DNA of 64,000 bases from a virus, in IMG/VR virus record IMGVR_UViG_3300002092_001594, positions 32,001-96,000 of that record; one strand, written 5' to 3'. The first letter of the stretch is position 1; every line of letters begins with the position of its first letter. Below the pieces are notes generated by a model. That model did no database searches. It was not told where the DNA came from and saw only the letters and a list, made by a program, of their open reading frames with translations. A program made the position numbers and the translations under genes. Positions 46,056 to 62,783 of the stretch are shown here, piece after piece.

Positions 46056-46098
46056 TTTATTCTATGTTTTATATAAATATCTACTAATGTAAAACTTA

Positions 46099-46446: not shown

Positions 46447-46466
46447 GTTGTTTTTTTATGTTTCTA

Positions 46467-48230
46467 TTAACCGAATGTTACTCCAGTTGGTAAGATGTTA
46501 AAGTCTAATTGGATGTATTCAGCTGTTCTAGTTGGTTGTAAGTAAATAGCACCTACAAGTAAGTTTCTATCAATTACATCTGGTGTGTTATTAGTTTCAT
46601 CCATTACTACTCTGAATGCATACAAACCTTGTCTTTGTTGTACATATTCTAAGTAAGGATTAACTTGAGATGTAAATTTATTTCTAGTTACTGTTGTATT
46701 TTGTTCGAATACTAATGTTTGTGCAATTTGACCAATGTAACTCTTAAGTGCAATTAATAAACGTCTTACATTTACTCTATCTAAAGATGAAGCTTTAGCT
46801 TGTAATGTTTTTTGACCGTATACTACTGTACCTTGACCTGGGAATACTGCAATTGGATTAACTTTAGAACTATATAAAGTATTTCTCTGGTTAACTGTCA
46901 ATCTGATTTCAGGTTGAATTACTGTTGGTAAACCTCCTCTATTTAAACCAGCTGGTGCGAACCATTCTGCTGACACTTTATCATTGTACTCATATACCCC
47001 TGGAATTACAGTTGAAGCAGGTACGAAATTTAATCTACCAGTCTCAGTAGATCTTGTTTGTACCCATGGGTAATAAGTAGCTCCGTATGAATTATCGTAA
47101 GTTTGAGCTGCTTGAGTTACTGAATTAATTGTTTGATTATATCCAACTAAATCTACTACTGCAATTGCATCACCGCGATTTTGTACTGTTGATAATAAAG
47201 CACTAACTTGACTTGTTGCATTTTGAGTAGAGATGCCAGGTGCATAAATTGAATTATAAGCATATGCATCTTTATTAGCTAATAAGTTAATAGCTGTATC
47301 GTAATCACTAGCAAATACACCTTGAATATTTGTAGTAGGATCGCTTGCTACAGAAGGTATTGTAGGAATTTGTTCGAATAAATTTAATGGAGCAGTTCCA
47401 AAAGAACCGTATAAAGGACCAGTTGCGTTACCAAATGAACCGTTTGCAGATCCACTACCGTTTAAGGGAATAGAAGCTGTATATTGTGCTTGAGCTCTAC
47501 CTTGTGGATTTAAATAATTCGGTGTCGGTGTAAATACGTTAGAAATTCTAATGTAGTTAGACAAATTAGGATAGCTACCTGTAACTTGGAAGTAAGCTTG
47601 ACCGCTTTCGTCATATTTTACAGTTTGTGCTTGATCTCCAATTACGTAAGCAATATAATTATTTTGATTTGGATCTAAAGATAAGTTAGTCCAAGTTTCT
47701 AATACTGATTGATTTTGAGTATAGTCATTACCTTGTCTAATTAACAAAGTAAAATATCCAGAAGCGCTATCAGCTTGTGTAATTTGCCATCTAATATTAT
47801 TTGAAGAACCAGAAGGTAAAATTCCGTTTACTGCTCCTGTAGCACCTTGGTTATTATTCATTACATTACCTACTGATATTGTTTCGATTTCAAAAGATGC
47901 AGATCCTAGACTATTAACTACAGTAGAAGAAGTAGCAGCAGTATAAGAACCGCTTGTTACTCTTGTTACTAACAGAGAAGTACCTCCTTGTTGAAAGTAA
48001 TTATAAGCTGCTTGAGAAGTTAAATATTCTTGTGTATTGCCTCCAGAAATGAAAGTAGTACCGAACTTAGCTGAATACTCAGAATAAGAAGTTACTAACG
48101 TAGGAGTATCTTTTCTACCAACTACTGTAGGGCCGATTAATGCTGCTCCTACCGTGATAGGGCCTGTTGTTATTTGAGATTGATCGTTTTCTCTTAGGAA
48201 AACGCCTGGACTAATTAATGCTTCTGCCAT
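46467..48230 (-). CDS. contractile tail sheath protein
   Basis: SPGVFLREND, WFAPAGLNRG, YGQKTL, DRVNVRRLL, FEQN, PTRTAEYI. Confidence 0.96.
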   Translation of the reverse strand: MAEALISPGVFLRENDQSQITTGPITVGAALIGPTVVGRKDTPTLVTSYSEYSAKFGTTFISGGNTQEYLTSQAAYNYFQQGGTSLLVTRVTSGSYTAATSSTVVNSLGSASFEIETISVGNVMNNNQGATGAVNGILPSGSSNNIRWQITQADSASGYFTLLIRQGNDYTQNQSVLETWTNLSLDPNQNNYIAYVIGDQAQTVKYDESGQAYFQVTGSYPNLSNYIRISNVFTPTPNYLNPQGRAQAQYTASIPLNGSGSANGSFGNATGPLYGSFGTAPLNLFEQIPTIPSVASDPTTNIQGVFASDYDTAINLLANKDAYAYNSIYAPGISTQNATSQVSALLSTVQNRGDAIAVVDLVGYNQTINSVTQAAQTYDNSYGATYYPWVQTRSTETGRLNFVPASTVIPGVYEYNDKVSAEWFAPAGLNRGGLPTVIQPEIRLTVNQRNTLYSSKVNPIAVFPGQGTVVYGQKTLQAKASSLDRVNVRRLLIALKSYIGQIAQTLVFEQNTTVTRNKFTSQVNPYLEYVQQRQGLYAFRVVMDETNNTPDVIDRNLLVGAIYLQPTRTAEYIQLDFNILPTGVTFG

Positions 48231-48251
48231 TTTATGTGTTTATTTCTGATA

Positions 48252-48258
48252 ATAAATA
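48252..48258 (-). promoter_or_regulatory. putative late promoter (TATTTAT) for tail sheath
   Basis: Same motif precedes tube (46072-46079), chaperone (44841-44847) and tape measure (43764-43771). Confidence 0.7.
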
Positions 48259-48283
48259 GCTGGTAATGATGGCAAAACCTAAT

Positions 48284-48538
48284 TTATTGTATTAGGGTGA
48301 TAACGCCGGTCTCTACATCGATAGAACCGTTACCGTACTTGGTGCCAAACCCTGTTAATAAGGTTTTTTCCTTAAGGGCGTTTTGCTTGATGACAGTATT
48401 TAGATTTTCAATTTCAAAGTCTAAAAGGGTCTTTCTATAGGTTAAATCACCTAAAACGCTAATGCTTTCAAAGATTTCTTCTCTAAGACCTTGAAACTCT
48501 TTAAGTTCTTCTTGTGTTAACGTAACTTTTTCACTCAT
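48284..48538 (-). CDS. small coiled-coil phage protein
   Basis: LT.EEL...KYGNGSIDVETG motif. Confidence 0.7.
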   Translation of the reverse strand: MSEKVTLTQEELKEFQGLREEIFESISVLGDLTYRKTLLDFEIENLNTVIKQNALKEKTLLTGFGTKYGNGSIDVETGVITLIQ

Positions 48539-48543
48539 TTTAA

Positions 48544-48741
48544 TTACTTTTTAACTTTTTTAGCTAAAGTTTTAGCAACTTTTGCTTCCTTTTCTACTAC
48601 TGTTTCTACTTCCTTTACTACTTCTTTAACCTCTTCAACTTTACCTTCTACCTTTTCGATAACTTGAGAGATCTTAGTTTTGTTTAATTTGTAGGCAACA
48701 AATAATGCTACTGCTACAATGATAACGATTACTAATGTCAT
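48544..48741 (-). CDS. small membrane-anchored protein
   Basis: N-terminal TM plus V/E/K repeats; late motif at 48767-48774. Confidence 0.7.
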   Translation of the reverse strand: MTLVIVIIVAVALFVAYKLNKTKISQVIEKVEGKVEEVKEVVKEVETVVEKEAKVAKTLAKKVKK

Positions 48742-48794
48742 AATGTGTGCTTTTATTGTTATTTTATATAAATATATAGACTTTTATAAGAACC

Positions 48795-49334
48795 TTAGAT
48801 TTTAATACATTCAATATTCAAGCTTATTAAAGTACCGTTCTCTTTATCCATATGTGGAATATAAGCTTGTGAATAGTCATCAAAAGTACCGTGATCTACT
48901 TGTTTCCAGTCCCAGAGCTTTATATTACTGAAGCCATTAAGGCTTAATAAAAAGTCTAAAGAACTATAATCGTAAATTGTTTTATGGTAGATTGTCTTAT
49001 CTCCCATTTGCATTTTACCGTACAGAGGACCTAGGAATTTACTGATACTATGATCACTTGTATATAGTTTAACTATTTTTTTGAAGTCAGGAACTGATAA
49101 TCTTAATATGCCGCCAGGTTTTAAGACCCTACGCCATTCATTTAGGACTGTAACAGCTTCTTCTCTATCAAAATACTCAAATACATGCGAGGCATAAATT
49201 AAGCTTACTGTATTATCTTCAAACGGTATGTTTGTAATATCGTGAGAATGTAAATGAGGAAAATCTCCGCCGTCTATATGTGTCCATTCCGGACCAAAAT
49301 CTTTTTTTCCGCAACCTAAATGTAATTTTATCAT
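48795..49334 (-). CDS. SAM-dependent methyltransferase (type 11-like)
   Basis: LHLGCG, YASHVFEY, RRVLKPGG..RLSVPD. Confidence 0.88.
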   Translation of the reverse strand: MIKLHLGCGKKDFGPEWTHIDGGDFPHLHSHDITNIPFEDNTVSLIYASHVFEYFDREEAVTVLNEWRRVLKPGGILRLSVPDFKKIVKLYTSDHSISKFLGPLYGKMQMGDKTIYHKTIYDYSSLDFLLSLNGFSNIKLWDWKQVDHGTFDDYSQAYIPHMDKENGTLISLNIECIKI

Positions 49335-49900
49335 ACTAGTTTTTTTTTTATTTTAATTCCAATATTAGTTGCAATCATAAATCTCACATCTTGTGATTTA
49401 TTCTCCTGTGTTCTATGAAGGTACCAACCTGGCATAACAACTACATCGTTTTCTTTTACCGGTACTCTTTTCCAACTCCAACTTTCATCTTGAAAAGGTA
49501 CAAACTTGTAGGAGTCGTAGCTTGGATTTTTAACTTCTAATACTTCGGAATTTTCAGGTATTCTAATATAGGCACAAATAACAGCAACAACGTCCCCGTG
49601 GTTATGCTCTAATTTACTTTCACCGTAAGATGACGACCTTAACCAGGAATCTTCAATATAGTATTCATGATTGTTTGGTAGTCCCCATTTTTCGGTTATA
49701 ATTTTCTTGTAGAGAGGTTCAAGATAATCATAGTAACCTTTAAACATATCGACTTTGTGTGGTTTAAAATTTGCACCATATCTACCGTAAACATCATCGT
49801 ATTCTAAATGGTATTGATGACAAAATTCTTTTATTAAATCCCATTTAAAATCATACTCAAGCTTATAGATTTCGTTATCAAATAGTTTTACTTGTTCCAT
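49331..49900 (-). CDS. putative 2OG-Fe(II) oxygenase
   Basis: SW...EHNH...AYI...PGWYLH...R..IATN. Confidence 0.8.
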   Translation of the reverse strand: MEQVKLFDNEIYKLEYDFKWDLIKEFCHQYHLEYDDVYGRYGANFKPHKVDMFKGYYDYLEPLYKKIITEKWGLPNNHEYYIEDSWLRSSSYGESKLEHNHGDVVAVICAYIRIPENSEVLEVKNPSYDSYKFVPFQDESWSWKRVPVKENDVVVMPGWYLHRTQENKSQDVRFMIATNIGIKIKKKLV

Positions 49901-50570
49901 CTTTTAATTGATTAAGGTTATTACCTTTTACAAATCGCTGTGAGTAAAAGTTCTTAAAGTCTGAATGTAATACTGTTATATCTTGTGTTGTATAGACCTG
50001 CAGCCAAACTCTCCTTGGTTTATCAGATTTATTCTCTTCTGAGTAGTGTAGCGTTTCTCCATCCCAAACAATAATATCTCCTGCTTTTGAGTAAGCGGTT
50101 ACATACTCTCCTGTTTTTTTATTTAGTAACCTAACAGGACCATTTTCATCTGTAAAGTCATCTAATACCCAACAACAAGTTATGCTTCGGTACCAGCCTT
50201 CAGAAGCCATTTGTGGATTAGGTCCATATCCATTATCACTATGAGGATCAAAAGTGAAATTATCGTTAGGTAGTTTAACTACTATTTGATCGTTAAATAA
50301 ATAAATTTCATCAGTATCTAACAGTTCACTTGCTATGTCGTACATTAAATCAGAAGTGTAGAATTCAAACAGTTTATCGTACTCGGTACTAGCGACATCT
50401 AAGCCTGTCCAGTATTTCATAAGACCAAACGGACGAGGCTGTCCTATTAAATTTTCATTAATAGTCCTATTCCTATAATCTAAAGTAATCTCTCTTGCTG
50501 TATCTAAAAATTCAGGAGTTAATTTATTGCTAAAAGTAATATATCCATTTTCTTCAAATTCTATATTCAT
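49878..50570 (-). CDS. phytanoyl-CoA dioxygenase (PhyH)-like 2OG-Fe(II) oxygenase
   Basis: PHSD, WVLDD..ENG, AGD......LHYS..N.S..PRR. Confidence 0.88.
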   Translation of the reverse strand: MNIEFEENGYITFSNKLTPEFLDTAREITLDYRNRTINENLIGQPRPFGLMKYWTGLDVASTEYDKLFEFYTSDLMYDIASELLDTDEIYLFNDQIVVKLPNDNFTFDPHSDNGYGPNPQMASEGWYRSITCCWVLDDFTDENGPVRLLNKKTGEYVTAYSKAGDIIVWDGETLHYSEENKSDKPRRVWLQVYTTQDITVLHSDFKNFYSQRFVKGNNLNQLKDGTSKTI

Positions 50571-50572
50571 AC

Positions 50573-51145
50573 TTAACCTCTTTTAATTTTACATACCCAG
50601 GAAACATCAGCAAATGCTTCAAAGTTGTACGGTACTAATGAATTTCTAATTGAACATTCTTCTATATCTTCATCTTGAATTTCCAACCAATTCCATTTCT
50701 TATTATAAAACTCCTGTCCGAATATTGTAAAATTAGAGACGTAGTCGTGTGCCATTATAACATCTCCTTCTTTTAAGAATGCTGAAAAAGTGTTAAACTC
50801 TTTCGGTTTATCTCCACCATCGCATAGTAATAGGATTCTACCGTGGTTCTGTATTAAACTCTGTAAGTCGTACTCAAAAATATTAATATGGTTTATATCA
50901 ATACCTTTACTAATTAAGTTATTATGAGTACTATGAGGATCTTCGATATCAAACGACATCAGCTTATAGCTTAGACTGTGTTCAGCTTTAAAATCATATA
51001 AAAATTCAACAAAACCACCTACTGCAGTTCCAATCTCTACAATTAAATCAAAAGGCTCTTCTAATAGGAACTTCTCAAAGACACCCCAAGCATTAAATTG
51101 CTGCTGTGCTTTGTATTTGCCTTTATATGTAGAATACATGTCCAT
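50573..51145 (-). CDS. CmcI/class I methyltransferase-like protein
   Basis: IVEIGTAVGG, SFDI, LCDGG, AHD. Confidence 0.7.
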   Translation of the reverse strand: MDMYSTYKGKYKAQQQFNAWGVFEKFLLEEPFDLIVEIGTAVGGFVEFLYDFKAEHSLSYKLMSFDIEDPHSTHNNLISKGIDINHINIFEYDLQSLIQNHGRILLLCDGGDKPKEFNTFSAFLKEGDVIMAHDYVSNFTIFGQEFYNKKWNWLEIQDEDIEECSIRNSLVPYNFEAFADVSWVCKIKRG

Positions 51146-51150
51146 AAACT

Positions 51151-51180
51151 GTAATATAACCTTTTTAACAATATTATCAA
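51151..51180 (-). promoter_or_regulatory. Bacteroidota-type sigma70 promoter
   Basis: TTG-N19-TATATTAC. Confidence 0.55.
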
Positions 51181-51185
51181 ACTGT

Positions 51186-52229
51186 TTATATGAGTTTTTT
51201 AGTGTTTATGTTGATTTTAGTACTATTTTTAAAGCTATTATACTGTTCTAGGATAGTATCCCACTTCTCTTCTGAGATTACTGAGGACTGCTTTCTGTAT
51301 TCTTCGGCAAATAGACTCCATGTTGAGGTATTTGACTTTATTAAGAATTTACAAAAACTTAAAGCAAATAAATCAACCATATTACATATTGTAAGCTCTT
51401 TCTCATCAGTATCGATAATATCTCCAGATAGAGTAAGGAGTTCTTTAATCTTACCTATTATAGTTTCTTTAAGAATAATATTCTTACCGTATTTTTCGAC
51501 GTAATATGAAATTAAGTAAAAAGGTAAATCTGTGCTAATGTAGAACTTTTGATTTGGATTTATTTTTAAAAAATTATCAATAATATTAAAATAAACCTCA
51601 TCATTGATATAAGGATACCCTTCGTGATTGTATATATAAATTTTACTCCTAAAATCAAGGTAGGATTCTTTTATGTTAGACGATTCAATGTCTATTTTAT
51701 CTTTGTCGTATGCAACGCCAGAGCCTCTTCTAAGATGTATACCTATTGCATCCTTAGTAATATCTTTTAAATAGTCTTCTACTAAGTAGTTTTTTATTTT
51801 TATATGGGATAATGGACGTACTTTATTTTGATACTCAGTCTGTAGTGTGTTTAGAAAGGTAGAAGTGAGAAGTTCGTCCCTTTCATTAAATCCGCTAAAA
51901 TCAAAAGTGTAGGTCAAGTGGTTACAGTCTGCTAATTGCTTTGCAGCATACATATGATGGCAAAAGTCTTCTCGTACTTCCTTAATGTCAGGAATATTAA
52001 TAACTTTTTGATCTATGTTTTGTACTAAGGATGTGTGAGGTAGAAAAATAAAGTCATTGCTAACTTCAGGCCATTCTGTTCGATCCATCAATATACGATG
52101 ACCTTTTCCTAATGTTTCTCTTAAATAATATGCTATCTCCCAATTCACAACCCTATTACCGAAACTTGTATCTAAATTATGCCACACGAATCGTTTGTTA
52201 ATCCACATTAGCGATTTTTCAGAATCCAT
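51186..52229 (-). CDS. fucosyltransferase-like glycosyltransferase (GT-B; NodZ/GT11/GT23-like)
   Basis: FGNR, IGIHLRRG, FYISTD, DLFALSFC...STWS motifs. Confidence 0.75.
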   Translation of the reverse strand: MDSEKSLMWINKRFVWHNLDTSFGNRVVNWEIAYYLRETLGKGHRILMDRTEWPEVSNDFIFLPHTSLVQNIDQKVINIPDIKEVREDFCHHMYAAKQLADCNHLTYTFDFSGFNERDELLTSTFLNTLQTEYQNKVRPLSHIKIKNYLVEDYLKDITKDAIGIHLRRGSGVAYDKDKIDIESSNIKESYLDFRSKIYIYNHEGYPYINDEVYFNIIDNFLKINPNQKFYISTDLPFYLISYYVEKYGKNIILKETIIGKIKELLTLSGDIIDTDEKELTICNMVDLFALSFCKFLIKSNTSTWSLFAEEYRKQSSVISEEKWDTILEQYNSFKNSTKININTKKLI

Positions 52230-52384
52230 TAGCTTTGTGATGCCTTTAGTAACGTAATAAATTTGCTTATGATATTGTTTGATTGTGCCTTGTGCTTATC
52301 ACTTAAAGGCTTCATTACTCTTTCTAAAGTAATTGCTTGATCTACCTTTTTATATACTATCTTATTTAATGTAGTCTCTGACAT
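52229..52384 (-). CDS. small hypothetical protein (51 aa, missing from the ORF track)
   Basis: MSETTLNKIVYKKVDQ...FITLLKASQS*; fills the gap with a TAATG overlap onto the next gene. Confidence 0.65.
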   Translation of the reverse strand: MSETTLNKIVYKKVDQAITLERVMKPLSDKHKAQSNNIISKFITLLKASQS

Positions 52385-52391
52385 GTTATTA

Positions 52392-54242
52392 TTATTTATT
52401 GTGAACTAAAAGTCCGTTTGCAAAGAAGTTATGATTATCTGCTACCGTAAAGATATACATTGTAGTTGGATTTGTATGTAATAAGATGCTGCTAAATTCT
52501 GAAATTTCTACAATACTTGTTGCTTGTCCGGTTCTTGTATATAATGAATTACCTACTTCTAGTTTATTACCTTCTGTAGTTGAGCCGTCACGTGATGCTA
52601 ATGTAAGGTCTGCTTTATAGTATGGATGGTCTAAAGTTGAAGTAATTGATTTACTGTCTGCAGTATAGAGATTAATAATATTATCTTTAGTAGTTTGAAC
52701 AGGATTAGAAACTGCTTTAGGTTCAACTTCTCTAGTTGTTTCATTAAATGAAGCTACTACATCTCCTTCAACAATATCTTCAATGTTTTTAAAAGAACCA
52801 TCAGCCATTTCAATTTGAGTTCCTGCTGCAAAGCAATTATGAGCTATTGTAAAGAAAGTACTCATACTAAATCCGTGAATATTCTTAGTTGCTAATATAA
52901 AGTTATCTTCTTCCTCAAGGTTTAATGCATAAACAGTTTGAGGCTCTTCAAAAATTACTAATTCAATTGAATTTACAGTAACTAGAGTACCATTACTTGA
53001 AAGAATTGAGTCTCCGGTCTTAATATCTAAAACTCTTCGGTATTTTATAGTATTTGTTTCTTTATTATATACTAATAATCTCGTCTCACCTCCTATTACT
53101 ATCTCTTCACCATCTCCAAAATTTATAGAGGTCATTTCGTTAGTATAAGTTAAGCCGCTATAGATATCAACTAAAGTTGAAATAGTTTCATGTGATCCTT
53201 CTGGTAATACGTTACCGCTTATTAACCAGTCTCTAATAATAGCCTCGTCATCTGTGTTTGGAGCACTTTCTATAGAGTAAGACTTAAATTTATCGCCTAT
53301 CTTTACGTCTTTAATTTGAATAGTGTTACCTTCTTCGTCTAAAATTTCAGTATCTCCAATAAACCCATGTCTAATATTTTTAACATGGTTTGTTGCAAAC
53401 TCATAATAATGTTTATTAGATACTTTATTAACTAATGATTTATCGTCGAATCCAACTTCAGTCGGCAAATCAAGAACGGCTAAAATTTCATAGTCAGCAA
53501 CAGTACATAAATCTAGATTAGGTCCGTATACGATTTGAAATGAACGAACTGAACTAACCTTATTATTATTACTTTCAACTGCAGCTGGTGAGTAGTGGTA
53601 TTGTTGTAATACTAAATTGTGATCATTTATTTCTTCTAAGAAAGAATTAAGTCTATTCTGTATTGGTAGTTCGGATTGGCCTATTTTATAAAAGCCGTGT
53701 GATTTATGTTCTTCAATTGTTGACTTTACAATAACATCCGGAATATTACCTTGATTTAATAAGTCAATATCAAGTGTATTGTAGTCTCCATTCAAGTTAG
53801 ATGAATGGTAAAAATTAACAGTAGATTGAGAATCGCCTGCATCAGCAAATAACTTTAATAAGTTTAATGTGCCTTTAGCGTATTCAGAATCCAATATTGA
53901 TGTCTCATCGTACGCCATTCTTAAAACAAAGGTACTACCGTTATCGTCGATTGCTGGAGGAAAGATACTATCTTCAGGAGTCAAGATTGGATTTAGTGTA
54001 ATAGAAGGAGCGCTTTTCTCTAGGGATTCTCTTAGTGATTCAATAATAGGGTACTGAATACTATGCTTATACACCACGGTCAATTCCGTAATTGCATTAT
54101 TGTTTAATACGTTAAAAAATTCAGACCAATCGAATACAGATTTTTGAGATTCAATAATACCAGTATCAGTATTTATCTCAATTAAGCGCAAATCGTCGTT
54201 TTGGTCTCTAACAAAATCAGCCGAAAAAAAAGTTCCTTTCAT
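52392..54242 (-). CDS. circularly permuted ATP-grasp-like domain fused to two tandem Hint domains
   Basis: aa 1-292: ADF...LIEINT, PDVIVK, LVLQQY, VRSF; aa 293-469: GFIGDT...IAHN; aa 470-615: CFAAGT...TLDHP...HNFFANGLLVHN; terminal K. Confidence 0.75.
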   Translation of the reverse strand: MKGTFFSADFVRDQNDDLRLIEINTDTGIIESQKSVFDWSEFFNVLNNNAITELTVVYKHSIQYPIIESLRESLEKSAPSITLNPILTPEDSIFPPAIDDNGSTFVLRMAYDETSILDSEYAKGTLNLLKLFADAGDSQSTVNFYHSSNLNGDYNTLDIDLLNQGNIPDVIVKSTIEEHKSHGFYKIGQSELPIQNRLNSFLEEINDHNLVLQQYHYSPAAVESNNNKVSSVRSFQIVYGPNLDLCTVADYEILAVLDLPTEVGFDDKSLVNKVSNKHYYEFATNHVKNIRHGFIGDTEILDEEGNTIQIKDVKIGDKFKSYSIESAPNTDDEAIIRDWLISGNVLPEGSHETISTLVDIYSGLTYTNEMTSINFGDGEEIVIGGETRLLVYNKETNTIKYRRVLDIKTGDSILSSNGTLVTVNSIELVIFEEPQTVYALNLEEEDNFILATKNIHGFSMSTFFTIAHNCFAAGTQIEMADGSFKNIEDIVEGDVVASFNETTREVEPKAVSNPVQTTKDNIINLYTADSKSITSTLDHPYYKADLTLASRDGSTTEGNKLEVGNSLYTRTGQATSIVEISEFSSILLHTNPTTMYIFTVADNHNFFANGLLVHNK

Positions 54243-54258
54243 AAAATTACCAGTTTTA

Positions 54259-54266
54259 TATAAATA
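54259..54266 (-). promoter_or_regulatory. putative late promoter (TATTTATA) for the ATP-grasp/Hint gene
   Basis: Motif 17 nt upstream of ATG at 54242. Confidence 0.65.
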
Positions 54267-54309
54267 TCTACTAAATTCAGATATTCAAGTCAATTATGTA
54301 TATATATGT

Positions 54310-55383
54310 CTATACGATCTTCTTTGTTATATCTACTACGTCGTGTAAATTGTGATATACCTGCGGCTCAATCCATATCTTCTTAGCTTCTTCAATAAAA
54401 TCACTGTATTCAGGATGTATTGGATCCCAGACTTTAACGAATTCGTATTGATTACAGTTAAATGTTCCCCAGTTATTAATTTTAATGAATAAAACAGATG
54501 CTTTTTTACCGAATATTCCTTTAATTAAGTCAGCAAACATCCTCATTTCTTTATAATTAGCTTGTTGAACTACAAATGACGTTCTTACCTCTTCTAAACT
54601 CGGAATTGTACTAATAAATTTAAGGTTTTTGATTAAATTATCCCAATTACCGTTTAATCTAGTTTTATTTTCATAGGTTTCTTTAGTTGCAGCGTCAATA
54701 CTGATCTCACAGGTCTTTACATACTTGTGAATATTCGGCATAGTGTTCCACATCTTCTCGTTCCACATAGATGCATTAGTATGCAAGTGAATACTCTTAA
54801 GTTTTGGGTATTCATCCTTGTTAAAGTTTTGTAAGAAAGCTCTGAATGTGTTAGAAACGAAGGGATCTCCAGATGCAGTGAAGTATAGTGTCTTAGCATC
54901 CTTTGAAAACAGTCTTTTCATCTCTGTCATAGTGTCTTCTATCTCTATTAAATTTTCTGGAGTAGCTTTATAGGTCTCTTTTCTACAAGAAGGACATTTA
55001 TAATTACAGCTCTTGTCGAAATTATGTTCTATTTTTTCAGGACCTACTTCCATATAAGGGTCTTGATTAATAAACTTCTCTTTAAACTTATTTGGTAGGT
55101 CGTCCTTGTGGTAAATTGGGCCTTTAGGATCTACTTCATTAAACTTCAATAGATATGATAGGTATGGACATTGAGTAGCATCACAATGTCTGTATGACCC
55201 ATCCATTACCGATCTTCTTGACTCTAAAGAATCTTCTGAGTTCCAAATCTCACTTAAAGGTTGGTTTTCAGGATTTCTTTTAATTAGCCACTCAGGAATA
55301 CAGAGGAAATATTGATTTTCTTCATGTATGTGTAGAAATCTAAAAGGTGCTGTACACACATAGTTTTTTAAATCAACTTTCAT
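54310..55383 (-). CDS. radical SAM protein with N-terminal SPASM/twitch-like Cys domain (paralogue 2)
   Basis: CNYKCPSC, SGDPF, HTNAS, SIDA; N-terminal C..PF...WNS...C....CP. Confidence 0.88.
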   Translation of the reverse strand: MKVDLKNYVCTAPFRFLHIHEENQYFLCIPEWLIKRNPENQPLSEIWNSEDSLESRRSVMDGSYRHCDATQCPYLSYLLKFNEVDPKGPIYHKDDLPNKFKEKFINQDPYMEVGPEKIEHNFDKSCNYKCPSCRKETYKATPENLIEIEDTMTEMKRLFSKDAKTLYFTASGDPFVSNTFRAFLQNFNKDEYPKLKSIHLHTNASMWNEKMWNTMPNIHKYVKTCEISIDAATKETYENKTRLNGNWDNLIKNLKFISTIPSLEEVRTSFVVQQANYKEMRMFADLIKGIFGKKASVLFIKINNWGTFNCNQYEFVKVWDPIHPEYSDFIEEAKKIWIEPQVYHNLHDVVDITKKIV

Positions 55384-56457
55384 TTATATAATCTCCTTTT
55401 TTATTTCAATAAATTCGTACATGTTATGAAACACTTGTGTATCTCTCCAAACTTTATTAAACTCTTTTTTAAAAAGATCGTGTTCAGGATGATTAACATC
55501 CCATACTTTCTTAAGTTTAAATTCTCCTTCGGTAAAAGTATCCCAGTTGTTTATCTTACCAAAAAACACATGAACTTTTTTGCCAAAGATTGATTTCATT
55601 AGCTTCAAAAATATTTCCATTTCACCATAATTACTATCTTGCACTACAAAAGAAGTCTTAATATACTTTAATACAGGTATCTTTGCTATGAAACGTAAGT
55701 TATCAATTAAGTTATCCCAATTACCTCCTAAACGTGTCTTATTTTCATAAGTGTCTCTGGTACCTGCATCTATACTTATCTCACAGCTCTTAACATACGG
55801 CCAAACATTTTTCATGCTATCCCACATCTTTTCGTTCCACATTGACGCATTAGTGTGTAAGTGTATGTTCTTTAACTTTGGATACTTCTTAGGGTCAAAC
55901 GTTCGTAAAAAATCTCTAAAGCCAACTGATACGAATGGATCACCACTTCCAGTAATAAACATTGTGGATAAATTCTTTGCGAACTTAGTTTCTATTTCTA
56001 AAAGGGTAGCTTTTACTCTTTCAATACCTTTTGAGTTTTCAACAATTAAGTCAACTCGACATGATGGACATTTATAATTACAAGTTCTATCAAATGCAAA
56101 TTGGATAACAGAAGGACCAACATTCATCTCTCCAGTTTCGATATTATAGTTATCGGTTATATAGCTTGGTGTATCCTTTCTTTCAACTATTGGATTTACA
56201 TTATTTAATTTCTTATCGTTTATTAATTCTGATAAAAAAGGACATTGCTTTTTATCACAATACTTGTAAGAGCCATCGTGAATTGATTTTCTTATTTCTT
56301 TAGCTTCCTCAGAATTCCAAACTTCATCTAATGGCTTTTTCATATCTGGAGATATGTTGTTGGGTAACCAGGTGGGACAACACATGAAGATAGCCTGATT
56401 GTGAATTTCAATATTTACAAACGGAGCTGTGCATATGTAATTTTTTAAATCTCTCAT
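55384..56457 (-). CDS. radical SAM protein with N-terminal SPASM/twitch-like Cys domain (paralogue 1)
   Basis: CNYKCPSC, GSGDPF, HTNAS, SIDAG; N-terminal C..PF...CC...WNS...C....CP. Confidence 0.9.
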   Translation of the reverse strand: MRDLKNYICTAPFVNIEIHNQAIFMCCPTWLPNNISPDMKKPLDEVWNSEEAKEIRKSIHDGSYKYCDKKQCPFLSELINDKKLNNVNPIVERKDTPSYITDNYNIETGEMNVGPSVIQFAFDRTCNYKCPSCRVDLIVENSKGIERVKATLLEIETKFAKNLSTMFITGSGDPFVSVGFRDFLRTFDPKKYPKLKNIHLHTNASMWNEKMWDSMKNVWPYVKSCEISIDAGTRDTYENKTRLGGNWDNLIDNLRFIAKIPVLKYIKTSFVVQDSNYGEMEIFLKLMKSIFGKKVHVFFGKINNWDTFTEGEFKLKKVWDVNHPEHDLFKKEFNKVWRDTQVFHNMYEFIEIKKEII

Positions 56458-57036
56458 TTATATTAATTTATTTTTTTTAAGTACATATCCATTTGGTGCT
56501 ATATTTGATTTGAATGTCTCTAATTGTGTAAAAATATTTTGTTCACTACTTTTCATTCTTATCTTTTTCCCATTTATAATAGATAACTCATAATCGTAAG
56601 GAAATTTTATTTTCCTATTATTAAAATAGTCTAGTAACTTAATAGCGCCTTGATAAGATATAAAATATGAATAACAGCTACCCTCTACTCCTAAGTTATA
56701 AAGGTCAAACTCTCTAAAGTCCACACTCCTCCAATCAAAACTATTAACCATATCGATATCATCCTCTATTATTAGTATATTACTTCTAGATTCAGCTGAT
56801 AATTTAATTAATGACAGATGTGATAGAAATGTTGCCATAGTTGCTTTTTGGCTAAAGTCCCATTCGATCAAAAAATCATCAACAAAATATTTTTTTTCTA
56901 ATTCTACTGTAACATCCTTTGGTTCTACTGCATTAAAAAAATCAAACTCTAATCCGATTCTATCTTTTATAGATTTCATCCATATTCTTCTATCCTTATC
57001 TAATTCTAAGGAAATGCAGTAGGTTTTGAATTCCAT
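56458..57036 (-). CDS. glycosyltransferase family 25
   Basis: YCISL...RR, FFNAV, FLSH, LIIEDD, YFIS..GA.KLL. Confidence 0.85.
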   Translation of the reverse strand: MEFKTYCISLELDKDRRIWMKSIKDRIGLEFDFFNAVEPKDVTVELEKKYFVDDFLIEWDFSQKATMATFLSHLSLIKLSAESRSNILIIEDDIDMVNSFDWRSVDFREFDLYNLGVEGSCYSYFISYQGAIKLLDYFNNRKIKFPYDYELSIINGKKIRMKSSEQNIFTQLETFKSNIAPNGYVLKKNKLI

Positions 57037-57681
57037 TTAAATATACTTATTATCTTTCACCTTAAAGCTATTGTGAATATATAATGCGTCGTTATTGCTA
57101 CTGAATAGTTTAGTGTATCCATACCCATATAACAAGTTATCGAAGTCTTCATACGAAGTGCCTGACTCATAGAAAATATCAAATGCGCAGATTTCTGACC
57201 AAATGCATGCTGGTCTGTAGTTGCCTAGTTTACTCAATATCTTATATTCTGCGCCTTCAGCATCAATATGTATGAAGTCTGGTGAGACATTATTTTCATC
57301 GCAGAATTTATTTAGAATTATGCTTTGAACAAAGTAGGGTTTTCCGTACGTCAAATTAAAATACTCAGTTGGAATTGGTTTTAATGTGCTACTAGATATG
57401 TTCCAATTTTTTTGACCATTGAGTGTATCGGATGGATAAAATATTATTTCACCTTCAGTATCAGATAGTGCATAATGAAAGTAATTTATTCCATGGTCAG
57501 CTGCTGTTATGCTATTACTTTCTTTAAATTTTTCATTACATTCGAATGCATAAAATTCTGCGTTTGGTAAATGATTTTTAAAGTCAATTGTATCACCTAA
57601 GTCGGAACATCCAATGTTGAAAAAATTTATTTTCTTATTGTAAAAATTATTTACCAAAAAATCTGTACTTAAATCGCTCAT
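57037..57681 (-). CDS. FkbM-family methyltransferase
   Basis: NIGC..G, YAFE, ALSD..G, SSSTL, DFIHIDAEGAE. Confidence 0.88.
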   Translation of the reverse strand: MSDLSTDFLVNNFYNKKINFFNIGCSDLGDTIDFKNHLPNAEFYAFECNEKFKESNSITAADHGINYFHYALSDTEGEIIFYPSDTLNGQKNWNISSSTLKPIPTEYFNLTYGKPYFVQSIILNKFCDENNVSPDFIHIDAEGAEYKILSKLGNYRPACIWSEICAFDIFYESGTSYEDFDNLLYGYGYTKLFSSNNDALYIHNSFKVKDNKYI

Positions 57682-57686
57682 AATTT

Positions 57687-59240
57687 TTATTTAAAAAACA
57701 TTTGATTGTTTATTACTAATATGTCTATGTCTGTTTCTAAAAAAGTTTTTAAAGCATCTTCTGGGGTTAATATCATGGTCTTATCTTTGATATTAAATGA
57801 GGTGTTAAGTAAAATTGGATACCCGCTTAACTTTTCAAAGCGTGTTAATAATTTGTACATATTACCTTTACGATCATATACTGTTTGTATTCTAGCTGTT
57901 CCATCTACATGCGTTATTGCTTTTAACTTGTCTCTGTATTCTTCTCTTACTTTAACGACTTGATTCATATAAGGAATGAAATCGTATGATTCAAAGTAAG
58001 TGCTTTGTGCAAACTGAGTAACCATTGGTGCAAAAGGCCTAAACATCTCTCGCTTCTTAATAAGCTTGTTTATTCGATCTTGCATTCCTGGTATAGTCGG
58101 GCTAGCTAATATACTCCTATGTCCTAATGCACGTGCACCAAACTCAATTCTACCTTCATACCAGCCTACTACCTTTCCTTTGTGTAATTCCTTTGCTATA
58201 ACATTTAAATCTAGCATTTTTGTGTTGCACGTTGTAAATTCGTACTCTGGACCTAAGAAAGGATCTTGTTTTATACGGTGATGTACAAAATTAGTACAAG
58301 CGCCAATGCAAGAACCTGCATCTGAAGGTGCAACAGGTATCCAGATATTCTTATAAGGGGTATTTTCCTTTATCTTACCGTTTGCAGTACCGTTATAGGC
58401 ACATCCTCCGCTTAAACATAAGTTTTCCCCCGGATATAGGTTTAAAAAGTGAAATAATGCTTTTTCGTAGATCCATTGAAGAGATGCTGCAATATCTTTA
58501 TGTCTTTGCTCTATCGGCTCGTCAGGAAGCCTGTTGTCCCCTAATAGTTCTATTAAATGATGACTAAACATTACTTTATTACTACTATCCCACGTAAAGT
58601 ACTTCATATCTACGTGTAATCCTCTCTTATAGTTCAGTAATTTTCTAAACTTACCTTTATACTTTGTCGGATCTCCGTAAGAAGCGAGTCCCATTACCTT
58701 ATATTCACCTTCGTTTGGTTTAAAACCTAAATAGGCAGTGATAGCAGAGTATAATAGTCCTAGAGAGTGAGGATACTTAACAGTAAGTTCAGGAATAAAC
58801 TCTCCGTTTACTACTCTTACTATTTTTAACGTTTCTTCTTCACCTACTCCGTCAATACTAACTAAAGTTGCATCTGCAAAGGGAGAACTGTTGTAAGCAT
58901 ACATTAAATGAGACATGTGGTGTTCAGAAAAAAACACGGTATCGCTAAGCTTCTTTAGTTTAAACCATACTTTAATACCTGTCCACAAGGTTCTAGGTAC
59001 AGATCTCCAATTATGCTTTAAAGCTCTTAGTAATTTTAAATGCGGCTTTTCGTAATAACATACTACATCGAACTTATCGGTGTAAGTATCCTTAATATAC
59101 TGTATTGCATTGATAGGGAAAGAAGAATCATGCTTTATTCCTGTGAATTTCTCTTCTTCACATGCAAACACGAGTTTTCCGTCCTGAAATAGACAAGCAG
59201 CCGAATCGTGATAATATGCTGATATTCCTAGTACGTTCAT
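57687..59240 (-). CDS. carbamoyltransferase (NodU/CmcH/TobZ family)
   Basis: YYHDSAA, EHH.SH, DGVGE, EYKVMGLASYG, EFGARALGHRSILA, HVDGTARIQ, LNTSFN. Confidence 0.95.
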   Translation of the reverse strand: MNVLGISAYYHDSAACLFQDGKLVFACEEEKFTGIKHDSSFPINAIQYIKDTYTDKFDVVCYYEKPHLKLLRALKHNWRSVPRTLWTGIKVWFKLKKLSDTVFFSEHHMSHLMYAYNSSPFADATLVSIDGVGEEETLKIVRVVNGEFIPELTVKYPHSLGLLYSAITAYLGFKPNEGEYKVMGLASYGDPTKYKGKFRKLLNYKRGLHVDMKYFTWDSSNKVMFSHHLIELLGDNRLPDEPIEQRHKDIAASLQWIYEKALFHFLNLYPGENLCLSGGCAYNGTANGKIKENTPYKNIWIPVAPSDAGSCIGACTNFVHHRIKQDPFLGPEYEFTTCNTKMLDLNVIAKELHKGKVVGWYEGRIEFGARALGHRSILASPTIPGMQDRINKLIKKREMFRPFAPMVTQFAQSTYFESYDFIPYMNQVVKVREEYRDKLKAITHVDGTARIQTVYDRKGNMYKLLTRFEKLSGYPILLNTSFNIKDKTMILTPEDALKTFLETDIDILVINNQMFFK

Positions 59241-59356
59241 TAGTGGTTATAGATAAATGGATCACGCTTTTTTAACTCTTCGATTTTCTTCTTAAATCGC
59301 TTTTTGCGCTTACGCTCTTCCCATTTGTCTTTAAACCACTTTATTAGTTTTTTCAT
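59240..59356 (-). CDS. small basic protein ending DPFIY (38 aa, missing from the ORF track)
   Basis: MKKLIKWFKDKWEERKRKKRFKKKIEELKKRDPFIYNH*; TAATG overlap with the carbamoyltransferase. Confidence 0.7.
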   Translation of the reverse strand: MKKLIKWFKDKWEERKRKKRFKKKIEELKKRDPFIYNH

Positions 59357-59371
59357 AACAGATTCTTTGTA

Positions 59372-59402
59372 TAAAAATAGGAGTATTCTATTAAACTTCC
59401 AA
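59372..59402 (-). promoter_or_regulatory. Bacteroidota-type sigma70 promoter for the carbamoyltransferase-rSAM operon
   Basis: TTG-N20-TATTTTTA. Confidence 0.6.
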
Positions 59403-60077
59403 ATAATTCACTATTTCATCTGAAAGTTGGTAAGGATTCATAGGGAATTGAATACTAATACCGGAGCTTTGATAACGTGTGTCGTGAAAATCTCTGGCAT
59501 TAAATACTGAAACACTAGAAGTTATGTCGTAGATTGTGTCGTCAACGTTATCATAGACATAAAGTGATTTTGTATCAGAAATTATCATGTGAAGCTTGTA
59601 TGCTCTCTTTACTTCGTATTCATAAGTGTCCGGATATTCAGCTTTTAACCAAGCATCGTTGTCAAAGCTTAGTCCGTTGCTATCAGATACACGTAATTGT
59701 TTTATTGAATTTTTTGTGGAGCTGTTTTGATGCCATAACGCCATCTTGTAATGTGGAATTAAATCTTTCCAAGGTGCACAAGGAAATGGAGCTAAATCTT
59801 GGTGTATAACTGGACCGCGATTTACGTCTTCGATTCTAATGTTATAAGCAAACTGATTTGCATGAAATGTTGCAATAAAAGCAGTAGTTAGTGGAAATGC
59901 AGCTGCCTGTCTTGCTTGAAAGCTTTCATCTTGCCAGTCGTCTGAATTATAACCTATAAATTCCGTATCTGTGCTTGCAAGTAATTCTTGCTTTGCTGCT
60001 GCAAACATCTCTTGATTGACAAAGCTATCTAAAGATATATACGGAACTTTTACACCGTTCTTAGTTAATCCGACCAT
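59391..60077 (-). CDS. hypothetical protein, possible Fe(II) oxygenase/cupin fold
   Basis: IHQD...LHM...FNARDFH pattern (HxD...H). Confidence 0.55.
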   Translation of the reverse strand: MVGLTKNGVKVPYISLDSFVNQEMFAAAKQELLASTDTEFIGYNSDDWQDESFQARQAAAFPLTTAFIATFHANQFAYNIRIEDVNRGPVIHQDLAPFPCAPWKDLIPHYKMALWHQNSSTKNSIKQLRVSDSNGLSFDNDAWLKAEYPDTYEYEVKRAYKLHMIISDTKSLYVYDNVDDTIYDITSSVSVFNARDFHDTRYQSSGISIQFPMNPYQLSDEIVNYLEV

Positions 60078-60095
60078 AATTCGTTAATTTTATGA

Positions 60096-60111
60096 TTATA
60101 AATATTTATAA
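60096..60111. promoter_or_regulatory. palindromic bidirectional late promoter TTATAAATATTTATAA
   Basis: 16-bp perfect palindrome giving TATTTATA on both strands, exactly between divergent genes. Confidence 0.7.
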
Positions 60112-60128
60112 ACAGAAATAAGTTGCAA

Positions 60129-60674
60129 ATGAATGATAAATGGAATAAATTTATAGAAACTCCATCATTAAGGTTTCGTTATCAAGTACCTAAGTTTACT
60201 CCTAGTATTTATAGGGAGTATAGAGGTGAAATTTTCACCACTTTTCATTCAGAAGAGCATCCTGTAATGAAATATCTTCCTTTTAACAAAGAGGAATTAA
60301 ACATTCATAATAAATTCTCTAAATCTTACAAAGGTGTTTTAAGAGGCCTCCATTACGATAATAAAACGTGGAAGTTAATTCAAGCGCTTGCAGGAGATTT
60401 GTACTTAGTAGTTCTTGATATGAGACGAGATTCTTTTACCTATGGAGAATGGGAATCATTTATTTTAACTGAAAAGAGTAGAGATCAAATCTTAGTACCG
60501 CCCGGTTTTGCTAATGGTCATTACGCATTAACTGACTGTATTTTTCATTATAACTTATTTTATAAAGGTGAGTGTGTTGATTCAGTTGATCACGAAATAG
60601 TTAAATGGAATGATCCTGAGTTTCAAATAGAGTGGCCTACTGATAATCCAATTTTACAGAAAAAAGATAAATGA
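60129..60674 (+). CDS. rfbC: NDP-4-keto-6-deoxyhexose 3,5-epimerase (RmlC family)
   Basis: RGEIF, S.S.KGVLRGLH, KLI....G..Y.VVLDMR..S.TYG.W, VPPGFANG, WNDP...I.WP. Confidence 0.9.
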   Translation: MNDKWNKFIETPSLRFRYQVPKFTPSIYREYRGEIFTTFHSEEHPVMKYLPFNKEELNIHNKFSKSYKGVLRGLHYDNKTWKLIQALAGDLYLVVLDMRRDSFTYGEWESFILTEKSRDQILVPPGFANGHYALTDCIFHYNLFYKGECVDSVDHEIVKWNDPEFQIEWPTDNPILQKKDK

Positions 60675-61252
60675 TAGATACATTAATTACATTTGAAAGA
60701 AAAATAGCTGATCTGTGGGAAGCAGGTAAGATAAGAGGTCCTATTCACTTAAGCGGCGGTAATGAAAGGGAATTAGTAGAAATTTTCGGGAAAGTAAAAA
60801 GTGGAGATTGGGTATTTTCGACTTGGAGATCTCATTATCATGCATTACTTAAAGGTGTAGATCCTTCTTGGCTAGAGAAAGAAATATTGGATGGAAAATC
60901 CATTACGATTGTAAATAAAGAACATAAATTTTATTCATCAGCAATAGTTGGCGGTATTATTCCGATTGCTGTTGGTGTTGCAATGCAGCTTAAAGCCGAT
61001 AATAGTACTGATAAAGTTTGGTGTTTTATAGGAGATATGGCATTTGAGACAGGGATTTTTTATGAAATGCATAAATACGCTACAAATTATAATTTACCAA
61101 TTCAGTTTGTAGTAGAAGATAACGGTGTATCTACAAACACACCAACATTTGAAACTTGGAATAGTAAGAAACCAATACCAGATAATGTAATTTATTATAA
61201 ATACGAAAAACAGTGGCCGCACTACGGAACAGGAAAATGGATAATGTTTTAA
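60671..61252 (+). CDS. ThDP-dependent dehydrogenase E1 alpha-like subunit
   Basis: GPIHLS.G.E, WRSHYHAL, AIVGG, FIGD, VVEDN. Confidence 0.88.
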   Translation: MIDTLITFERKIADLWEAGKIRGPIHLSGGNERELVEIFGKVKSGDWVFSTWRSHYHALLKGVDPSWLEKEILDGKSITIVNKEHKFYSSAIVGGIIPIAVGVAMQLKADNSTDKVWCFIGDMAFETGIFYEMHKYATNYNLPIQFVVEDNGVSTNTPTFETWNSKKPIPDNVIYYKYEKQWPHYGTGKWIMF

Positions 61253-62247: not shown

Positions 62248-62783
62248 ATACACCTCAACATACACCCTACAAAGATGCTTTAACAAAAGCAATGGGTAAA
62301 TTAGGACAATACGAATACTCTACTTTTATAGGACAGCAAATACTGTATCCCGGTAATCCTATGAGTACTACTTTAGGAGATGTTCCTAAATCAAAAATGA
62401 TAGAAGTACCTGTAATGGAAGAATCTCAAATGGGTATGAGTCTAGGTCTTGCTATGGCAGGTAGGTTTGTTATTACTTTCTATCCTAGATGGGACTTTCT
62501 TATATGTGCAACAAACCAGTTAGTTAATCACGTTGATAAATTAGGATTAATGGGTAATTGGAATGTTGATATGATTATTAGGGTTGGAAAAGGAAGTACT
62601 AATCCCTTAGATCCTGGACATCAGCATAAAGGAAATTATTTCAACGAATTTAAATCTATGTGCCCTAATATAGAATTTCATGACTGTAGATCTCCACAAG
62701 ATGTAGAAAAAGCTTATGAATATGCTATTCAAGGAGGTATAAACCTTATTGTTGAGTATCCGGAGTTTTATTATTCCAACTAA
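62244..62783 (+). CDS. ThDP-dependent E1 beta/transketolase pyrimidine-binding domain
   Basis: PVMEESQMG...GLA, DFL..A.NQLVN, GHQH; lacks the usual C-terminal domain. Confidence 0.85.
   Translation: MNTPQHTPYKDALTKAMGKLGQYEYSTFIGQQILYPGNPMSTTLGDVPKSKMIEVPVMEESQMGMSLGLAMAGRFVITFYPRWDFLICATNQLVNHVDKLGLMGNWNVDMIIRVGKGSTNPLDPGHQHKGNYFNEFKSMCPNIEFHDCRSPQDVEKAYEYAIQGGINLIVEYPEFYYSN

Follow-up and report, generated by a model that had tools for sequence, protein, structure and literature searches.

Pelagimyophage genomes contain hypervariable clusters with tail fibers, glycosyltransferases, and radical S-adenosylmethionine (radical-SAM) cassettes (PMC7029224). The host recognition cluster, or hyperplastic region, of pelagi- and cyanomyophages is a large variable block among structural genes in which fibers, glycosyltransferases, sugar-nucleotide genes, radical-SAM genes, and 2-oxoglutarate (2OG) oxygenase genes turn over as cassettes (PMC7029224; PMC3037559). 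The same kind of block is present in a 115,224-bp IMG/VR virus contig (IMGVR_UViG_3300002092_001594), of which bases 32001 to 96000 were analyzed here as a stretch of 64,000 nucleotides (the window; positions refer to it, with the minus [-] or plus [+] strand given for each feature). The contig comes from an uncultured freshwater myovirus, and DNA of this phage is contained in lake and freshwater metagenomes. Its island of enzyme genes lies between the tail sheath gene and a Peptidase_S74 fiber gene at the contig end and is laid out like a host recognition cluster, as a variable block among structural genes with a fiber, glycosyltransferases, and radical-SAM and 2OG cassettes. The subject of this report is the sheath-side third of the island (48795 to 60077) and, within it, the gene for a protein with a predicted ATP-grasp ligase domain and two Hint domains (the ligase-Hint protein). 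No mention of this gene, of the small open reading frame (ORF) behind it (the partner), or of a three-residue C-terminal end-tag on neighboring enzymes was found in the literature on host recognition clusters and hyperplastic regions (PMC7029224; PMC3037559). These elements recur together in related viruses, and we tentatively favor the reading that they tailor a polypeptide in the cytoplasm.

In the glycan machineries of chloroviruses and mimiviruses, and in the glycosylation of mycobacteriophage capsids and tails, soluble viral sugar enzymes, glycosyltransferases, and sugar methyltransferases act on viral proteins in the cytoplasm. We know of no ligase-Hint or partner module in these virion glycosylation systems; their enzyme sets are similar to that of the island. 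In the graspetides, which are ribosomally synthesized and posttranslationally modified peptides (RiPPs; MdnC, 5ig9, 7mgv), and in the LysW/LysX system (3vpb, 5k2m), a small peptide gene lies beside an ATP-grasp gene and tailoring enzymes, as it does here. Enzymes of the glutathione synthetase/glutathionylspermidine synthetase (GspS) class couple a small peptide, through its C-terminal carboxylate, to an amine, and YgiC and YjfC of Escherichia coli were reported as peptide-spermidine ligases (Pederick et al. 2023, as cited in PMC12270671). No published paper was found on the module itself or on one uniting an ATP-grasp, a Hint domain, and a phage in this sense.

On its predicted structure, the N-terminal domain of the ligase-Hint protein is a circularly permuted ATP-grasp ligase of the glutathione synthetase/GspS class. 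The chain opens with the motif DF..D..LRLIEINTDT, one with which ATP-grasp domains normally end; here, as in the permuted eukaryotic enzymes of the glutathione synthetase class, the Mg-binding E-x-N strand precedes the rest of the domain. The AlphaFold 2 (AF2) model had a predicted local distance difference test score of 86.5 for the whole protein and 86.6 for residues 1 to 292. Foldseek gave a probability of 1.0 (E, 3e-6 to 1e-4) for matches of the domain to eukaryotic glutathione synthetases, YgiC/YjfC, and GspS. Structural comparison with VIA returned the same class at Z scores of 9.3 to 8.1 over 203 to 232 residues, whereas classical ATP-grasps scored 5 to 6. The top 11 VIA matches included glutathione, homoglutathione, glutathionylspermidine, and trypanothione synthetases and YgiC, together with other carboxylate-amine ligases (3k1t and 9cjn); the best structural matches to residues 1 to 288 were 3kak, 5oeu, 7uk6, 7uka, and 3o98. 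Residues D9, E22, N24, K173, and K186, candidates for Mg and ATP binding, were invariant in 24 to 29 sequences. Relative to the glutathione synthetase class, the ligase domain is distant (about 10% identity) and small (292 versus 370 to 600 aa), is always fused to Hint domains, and is found only in viruses. Because the N-terminal 292 residues are predicted to form a ligase, the protein would be an enzyme and not a passive substrate, one of the options in the original prediction, which was made from the sequence of this stretch.

The second Hint domain (Hint2) resembles A-type bacterial intein-like (BIL) domains and the BIL2 domain of Tetrahymena BUBL (2lwy and 6y75; 30% identity; Z scores of 23.3 and 20.4; root mean square deviation [rmsd], 1.6 to 1.7). 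For 6y75 the values were a Z score of 23.3 and an rmsd of 1.7, and Pfam PT-HINT matched with 57 bits. Like BILs, Hint2 has Cys1 (C470), a TxxH motif (T536 and H539), and a terminal His-Asn pair (H614 and N615), all conserved, and has neither an endonuclease nor a +1 nucleophile. The chain ends with Lys616 and a stop, and 18 of 29 family members share the HNK end. Given the missing +1 nucleophile, cleavage is expected rather than splicing.

The first Hint domain (Hint1) was recognized by fold comparison, since BLASTP of Hint1 against Hint2 gave no significant match and Pfam Intein_splicing scored 25 bits, under its cutoff. Its model aligned with the Prp8 intein 6mwy at a Z score of 16.9 (rmsd, 2.0; 133 residues aligned over 293 to 459). 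Hint1 has an invariant glycine (Gly293) at the nucleophile position in place of an N-terminal Cys, Ser, or Thr and therefore cannot form the N-terminal (thio)ester. It ends in His-Asn, immediately followed by Cys1 of Hint2, so that, by analogy with intein chemistry, one bond could be cut from either side. Self-cleavage of this Asn469-Cys470 bond, which would free Hint2, is predicted. Unlike BILs, Hint2 stands directly behind a Cys-less Hint, with one Asn-Cys bond for both and a C-extein of a single Lys, and 0 to 3 extra Hints occur across the family. In all members the ligase domain begins with residue 1, and protein lengths of about 460 to 935 aa point to 1 to 4 Hints behind it. Copy number, from about 1 to 4, varies among the related loci (including L023, L027, L028, and L031 to L037), and the extra Hints therefore look like mobile insertions.

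Clustering at 90% gives at least 415 members of the ligase family, and clustering at 50% identity gives 331 clusters. No match to the ligase domain was found in 50,697 cultured-phage records, where tblastn with the whole ligase-Hint protein gave only Hint-level intein matches, and megablast of the island against the same records gave zero matches. Among 185,579 species genomes there was one occurrence, on a 2.8-kb contig of a Cyanobium metagenome-assembled genome. By these searches, the ligase-Hint module is virus-only. The nearest cultured relatives by tail sheath were Flavobacterium phage immuto (52% identity) and Microcystis phage Mel-JY01; immuto has lysozyme and tail fiber genes upstream of its sheath gene and no comparable island there.

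Directly after the ligase-Hint gene, an ORF of 44 to 53 aa was found by position in 36 of 38 relatives, which marks the 51-aa ORF of the original prediction as a real gene. Partner sequences have conserved ends and a variable middle rich in Ser, Thr, and Asn. Tyr11 is invariant, Lys12 and the penultimate His are nearly so, and the second half carries an NFI.Y[LF]K..HS motif and looks helical by eye. Relatives end in K-x-x-H-S, and the window protein ends in SQS. With ligase, 2OG, and radical-SAM genes beside it, the partner recalls a precursor peptide with its enzymes. A carrier of the LysW type was considered and rejected, as the partner lacks the acidic Glu tail of LysW and LysX/ArgX matched the ligase at Z scores of only 5.2 to 5.8. 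The partner also lacks a graspetide-like core, and graspetide and LysX ATP-grasps together matched the ligase domain at Z scores of only 4.2 to 5.8. Unlike in RiPPs, recruitment here appears to be via tags on the enzymes and not via a peptide leader.

Co-occurrence was examined in a forward test, in which 39 IMG/VR loci retrieved by a ligase-Hint profile were searched with all island proteins; in a reverse test on the best 80 of at least 536 IMG/VR stretches encoding the radical-SAM subfamily; and by clustering of neighborhood ORFs from 28 nonredundant loci plus the window. The forward test found the 357-aa type of radical-SAM protein in 21 of 39 loci and the 468-aa type in 12; the carbamoyltransferase occurred in 14, and a 229-aa protein whose gene lies beyond the window occurred in 13. 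The reverse test recovered the ligase-Hint gene in 56 of the 80 stretches and the carbamoyltransferase in 29. Where at least 19 kb of sequence was available, the ligase-Hint gene was present in every locus (32/32), within 10 kb of the radical-SAM gene and always co-oriented with it (median gap, 2.3 kb). Clustering placed a P4H-like 2OG oxygenase family, often immediately behind the partner, in 26 of 28 loci; the partner was in 23, DUF6734 in 17, radical SAM in 14, and Hsp20 in 11. This partner-adjacent 2OG family has almost no cultured-phage relatives, and hhalign of its profile with the window 2OG-FeII_Oxy_5 protein showed no relation. Gene content differs among relatives, and gene order and copy number vary widely. 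In L006 (46% identity), the order is retained: carbamoyltransferase, radical SAM, ligase-Hint, partner, an 84-aa gene, sheath, and tube.

These results show that the core of ligase-Hint gene, partner, and tagged enzymes is tightly linked to radical-SAM and 2OG families. The original prediction expected the surrounding enzymes to co-occur with the Hint gene in relatives. The radical-SAM, 2OG, and carbamoyltransferase genes and the partner do so, and the GT25, FkbM, Methyltransf_11, and sugar genes do not; recurrence alongside the ligase gene is limited to the radical-SAM, 2OG, carbamoyltransferase, DUF6734, and w70799-type genes.

A further shared feature is the C terminus of the enzymes. The ending K-x-[I/V] was found in 7 of 166 ORFs of the 115-kb contig, all 7 in the island and 6 of them between 49331 and 57681 (1.8 expected; binomial P = 2.5e-7 for 7 of 40 island ORFs). 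Ile was the last residue of 12 of 40 ORFs in the island and of 8 of 126 in the rest of the contig (Fisher P = 2.6e-4). The tag takes the broader form [K/T/S/N]-[L/I]-[I/V/L] in relatives, and [LIV][ILV] ends occurred in 197 of 606 neighboring ORFs versus 5% expected. Radical-SAM orthologues end in TLI (42 sequences), SLI (11), or TII (6). Tagged families include 2OG oxygenases, radical-SAM proteins, SET-domain proteins, DUF6734, and FkbM, whereas the ligase and the carbamoyltransferase are never tagged. The tagged SET-domain and P4H-like enzymes belong to families that typically act on proteins. SET-domain proteins, typically protein lysine methyltransferases, are tagged in the islands of L013, L018, and L022, among others.

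The ligase-Hint operon also shares an upstream element with a major structural gene. The 19-nt sequence GTAGATATTTATATAAAAC occurs in two exact copies, one before the ligase-Hint gene and one before the tail tube gene, and in a third copy with 3 mismatches (48761 to 48779), where 0.17 would be expected by chance. Because the element is identical before the tube and ligase-Hint genes, the operon of ligase, partner, and fucosyltransferase-like genes is probably co-regulated with the tube gene.

The features of the region are collected in Table 1.

Table 1. Positions of the ligase-Hint gene, its predicted domains, and neighboring features in the window
Feature	Position	Strand	Basis or remark
Tail tube	45570-46055	-	64% identical to Flavobacterium phage immuto
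Tail sheath	46467-48230	-	Pfam sheath domains
Methyltransf_11, ends IKI	48795-49334	-	Pfam
2OG-FeII_Oxy_5 oxygenase, ends KLV	49331-49900	-	Pfam
PhyH (2OG) oxygenase, ends KTI	49878-50570	-	Pfam
190-aa ORF, no family assignment	50573-51145	-	Read as ORF
347-aa NodZ/FUT8/O-fucosyltransferase-like protein (a lead), ends KLI	51186-52229	-	Language-model atlas
Partner, 51 aa	52229-52384	-	Starts 7 nt after ligase-Hint stop; overlaps next start by 1 nt
Ligase-Hint protein, 616 aa	52392-54242	-	Pfam Hint families, AF2 models
Hint2, BIL type, intact, residues 470-615, then Lys616 and stop	52398-52835	-	Pfam, fold comparison
Hint1, residues 293-469, without Cys1, ends His-Asn	52836-53366	-	Fold comparison
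Predicted permuted ATP-grasp, residues 1-292	53367-54242	-	Foldseek, VIA
19-nt element upstream of ligase-Hint operon	54253-54271	-	Exact copy at 46066-46084 before tail tube gene
Radical-SAM paralogue 1, 357 aa, ends KIV	54310-55383	-	Pfam, NF033640, CxxxCxxC
Radical-SAM paralogue 2, 357 aa, ends EII	55384-56457	-	Pfam, NF033640, CxxxCxxC
GT25 glycosyltransferase, ends KLI	56458-57036	-	PF01755, 46 bits
FkbM-type methyltransferase, ends KYI	57037-57681	-	PF05050, 37 bits
NodU/CmcH-type carbamoyltransferase, untagged	57687-59240	-	PF16861 and PF02543, 212 and 199 bits
Basic 38-aa ORF, ends DPFIYNH	59243-59356	-	Read from sequence; stop overlaps carbamoyltransferase start
228-aa ORF without family match, heads leftward enzyme block	59391-60077	-	ATATTTATA motif 20 nt upstream
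Divergent sugar-nucleotide cassette	60123-62783	+	Pfam, NCBIfam

Much of the enzyme inventory of the original prediction was borne out: two radical-SAM enzymes around the Hint gene (with weak scores), the carbamoyltransferase, the adjoining tail sheath, and two genuine tiny ORFs. The rest was trimmed. Two of the two or three claimed 2OG oxygenases and two of the three claimed methyltransferases (Methyltransf_11 and FkbM) were supported, with no third of either kind inside 48795 to 60077; of the two glycosyltransferases, GT25 was secure. The candidate for the second, the 347-aa ORF, scored 0.95 to 0.97 in an atlas feature search against viral and NodZ/FUT8_N_cat/O-FucT clusters and had no Pfam, NCBIfam, PHROG, or PDB sequence match, so that a fucosyltransferase-like identity is only a lead. 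Both 357-aa radical-SAM proteins carry a CxxxCxxC motif and an N-terminal Cys-rich twitch/SPASM-like cluster, with weak Pfam scores of 28 and 34 bits against a cutoff of 29.5; a 468-aa paralogue beyond the window is of the canonical N-twitch type (NF033640, 354 bits). Nothing usable was obtained for the 190-aa and 228-aa ORFs from Pfam, PHROGs, NCBIfam, or PDB sequence searches, and hhalign of both against the relatives' 2OG profile showed no relation, so a third 2OG enzyme was dropped. ORFs nearly identical to the 38-aa ORF were found in 6 loci, in five of them adjoining a carbamoyltransferase gene; Pfam gave no meaningful match (only SieB, E = 0.052). We presume a resemblance to the small DUF5989 proteins beside bacterial carbamoyltransferases.

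The island extends for at least 35 kb, to the contig end. Its divergent cassette encodes an RmlC-like 3,5-epimerase (PF00908), the thiamine pyrophosphate (TPP)-binding half of an E1/transketolase-like enzyme (PF00676), a nucleoside diphosphate-hexose (GDP-mannose-type) 4,6-dehydratase (PF16363, 245 bits), and the pyrimidine-binding half (PF02779). The two TPP-enzyme halves, at 60671 to 61252 and 62244 to 62783 (+), have the dehydratase gene between them, a layout that recalls two-carbon branching of deoxysugars. Between 62.7 kb and the contig end are genes for a HAD phosphatase, a PMI/nucleotidyltransferase, DUF6071, the 468-aa radical-SAM protein, two GT7-like enzymes (one with Laminin_G_3), Methyltransf_24, DUF6734, and the Peptidase_S74 fiber; GT2-like genes are also present. 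The adjacent GT7 (beta-1,4-galactosyltransferase-like) genes lie beyond the window (L003:12736-15458, contig 107436-110158) and belong to a family better known from animals; the Laminin_G_3 fusion is to a sialidase-N-like lectin domain. A collagen-type target for GT25 and the hydroxylases was rejected, as the contig has no G-x-y repeat protein. None of about 40 island enzymes has a membrane span (no 19-residue segment above a Kyte-Doolittle value of 1.9). The sole clearly membrane-bound product near the island is a 65-aa protein (48544 to 48741, -) with an N-terminal membrane helix, and its gene has its own copy of the upstream element.

The reading that we tentatively favor is cytoplasmic tailoring of a polypeptide by the ligase-Hint, partner, and tagged-enzyme module. 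Its virus-only core would consist of the ligase-Hint protein, as enzyme or hub; the translationally coupled partner of 44 to 53 aa; and a changing set of soluble enzymes, which the end-tag would bring to one common partner for joint modification of a polypeptide while virions are assembled. Its likeliest target would be the small partner, as a RiPP-like precursor or carrier, with virion proteins as second candidates. Self-cleavage at Asn469-Cys470 would free Hint2. In this phage, the sugar cassette, glycosyltransferases, carbamoyltransferase, and methyltransferases may add a deoxyhexose glycan to the same acceptor and decorate it. A polypeptide-directed system, whether RiPP-like or protein modifying, remains the best fit, as originally proposed, with the Hint protein no longer cast as the substrate.

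Several observations weigh against this reading. The partner has no Cys and no leader/core signature, and Pfam and NCBIfam scans of the island enzymes revealed no RiPP recognition element or other peptide-binding domain. That the acceptor is a polypeptide is inferred from analogy and from the absence of membrane proteins, and soluble glycosyltransferases can act on lipid-linked intermediates too. The 357-aa radical-SAM proteins scored 59 and 66 bits with NF033640 (N-terminal twitch), under the cutoff of 170, and the contig is estimated to be 66% complete. GT25, FkbM, Methyltransf_11, the fucosyltransferase-like gene, and the sugar cassette are in essence confined to this phage and one relative with 84% identity, L005. 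Finally, tagged ORFs overlap the next ORF more often than untagged ones (62% versus 32%), and ATGA overlaps favor NTA last codons, also outside the island (4 of 6, ending in Leu); coupling at the RNA level may therefore account for some of the tag signal.

A more specific form of polypeptide tailoring, in which the tag directs the machine, is possible but doubtful. Here, the three-residue C-terminal tag would address unrelated radical-SAM, 2OG, methyl-, glycosyl-, and SET-type enzymes to the ATP-grasp-Hint ligase and a partner of 45 to 50 aa, and the late product would be a peptide or protein conjugate with heavy hydroxylation, methylation, and glycosylation. C-terminal carboxylates of tagged proteins or of the partner may be what the ligase acts on, and the Hints may release or transfer the product. 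A tag on the enzymes would reverse the logic of RiPPs, in which the leader is on the substrate.

Remodeling of host-surface glycans, the main rival, we consider unlikely. Unusual nucleotide sugars would be diverted to intermediates of host lipopolysaccharide (LPS) or capsule and so block superinfection or alter adsorption. This would account for the sugar cassette, the PMI/nucleotidyltransferase, GT25 (an "LPS biosynthesis" family), the GT7- and GT2-like genes, and the carbamoyltransferase. O-chain modification is the explanation favored for such pelagimyophage clusters in PMC7029224, where that reading is itself an inference. Contigs from other-lake metagenomes cover 46000 to 59240 and barely cover 59240 to 64000, with no bridging contig shown, as might be expected for a swappable cassette matched to the host; this is a weak hint. 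Contigs from two other lake studies (X4 and X8) match the window only at 57690 to 59240, the two borders of the carbamoyltransferase gene, and then run on, which hints at cassette exchange at gene boundaries. Against glycan remodeling, the roughly 40 island proteins include no membrane span, and the family matches include no initiating lipid-carrier transferase, flippase, ABC transporter, polymerase, or ligase of an O-antigen or capsule pathway; host machinery could supply such steps. Remodeling would also leave the ATP-grasp-Hint ligase, the partner, and the shared end-tag unexplained, and the ligase operon shares its upstream element with the tail tube gene.

Rather unlikely is a mosaic in which the module and the glycan genes share only a recombination hot spot and have unrelated targets. 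The near restriction of most other enzymes to L005 is at odds with the original idea of the whole 11 kb as one conserved system. The sugar genes, GT25, FkbM, and Methyltransf_11 are not conserved alongside the module and so may have a different purpose. The opposite strand of the sugar cassette and the fluid gene order and copy number also fit a mosaic. However, the end-tag of the radical-SAM and 2OG enzymes is also found on GT25, the fucosyltransferase-like protein, and FkbM, which are encoded in the same tightly packed operons.

It is improbable that the tag is no protein signal and merely reflects nucleotide constraints where stop and start codons overlap in compact operons. Within ATGA overlaps, 66% of ORFs are tagged, with Ile there always encoded by ATA, and TGA stops are found in 43% of tagged versus 15% of untagged ORFs. 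Across all loci, the last sense codon in 4-nt overlaps is nearly always NTA (Ile, Leu, or Val) and not the commoner AAA or GAA, which may be a general coupling preference. Nucleotide constraints do not readily explain ORFs with spacers of more than 30 nt, 21% of which are still tagged (versus 5% expected), with ATA and ATT about equally frequent. Three window enzymes whose stops are more than 30 nt from the next start retain an Ile or Val end (KIV, KLI, and IKI). Moreover, [LIV][ILV] ends are rare outside the island (7 of 126 ORFs) although these are mostly compact-operon genes, and the -3 position is limited as well, to K, T, S, or N.

The upstream sequences bear on a different model, that of the original prediction, in which enzymes were made early from host-type promoters and a late-made Hint protein or fragment was the substrate. 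The late-type motif noted at 54259 exists, within the 19-nt element shared with the tail tube gene, and self-cleavage at Asn469-Cys470 would yield fragments. The motif is not confined to late genes, however: its TATTTAT core was found 8 to 33 nt before about 30 genes of every class across the 115-kb contig, among them the gene heading the enzyme block (60104) and a DUF6734 gene beyond the window. The full form is (C/A)TATTTAT(A/T), which is not a T4 late promoter in the correct orientation. Its position so near the starts suggests that leaders are very short or that promoter and initiation signal are combined in one element. Sigma-70-like sites numbered 64, fewer than the 85 ± 8.6 in shuffles, and of the claimed host-type promoters only the site at 51180 to 51153 was among them. 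The closest cultured relative by sheath infects Flavobacterium; to our knowledge, Bacteroidota promoters do not follow the sigma-70 consensus, which would apply here if the host is of that group. Since the same type of phage motif heads both the enzyme block and the ligase operon, and since sigma-70 sites are no better than chance, we see no basis for a sequence of early enzymes and late substrate. Together with the invariant ATP-grasp residues of the conserved, predicted enzymatic N domain, this makes the early/late model very improbable.

Last, decoration of phage DNA bases by the sugars and tailoring enzymes is scarcely credible: all of the enzymes are soluble, and phage glycosyltransferases and carbamoyl-type DNA modifications are known in general, but the 115-kb contig encodes no thymidylate-synthase-like hydroxymethylase, and DNA hypermodification gives a peptide-type ligase and a small partner no role.

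In abundant aquatic myophages, hypervariable regions with glycan and radical-SAM genes are usually dismissed as "LPS genes" that alter the host surface. Here and in dozens of related regions, a conserved module of ligase-Hint protein, partner, and tagged enzymes forms the core, and the module is widespread, with its 331 ligase clusters and at least 536 IMG/VR stretches with a linked radical-SAM protein. The question of island function can thereby be put to the test with a few recombinant proteins. Should a peptide or virion protein be tailored by the module, this would represent a new posttranslational chemistry of phages and a new mode of enzyme recruitment, and the module would also be a source of compact self-cleaving Hints, a portable tag of three residues, and a permuted ATP-grasp ligase of small size.

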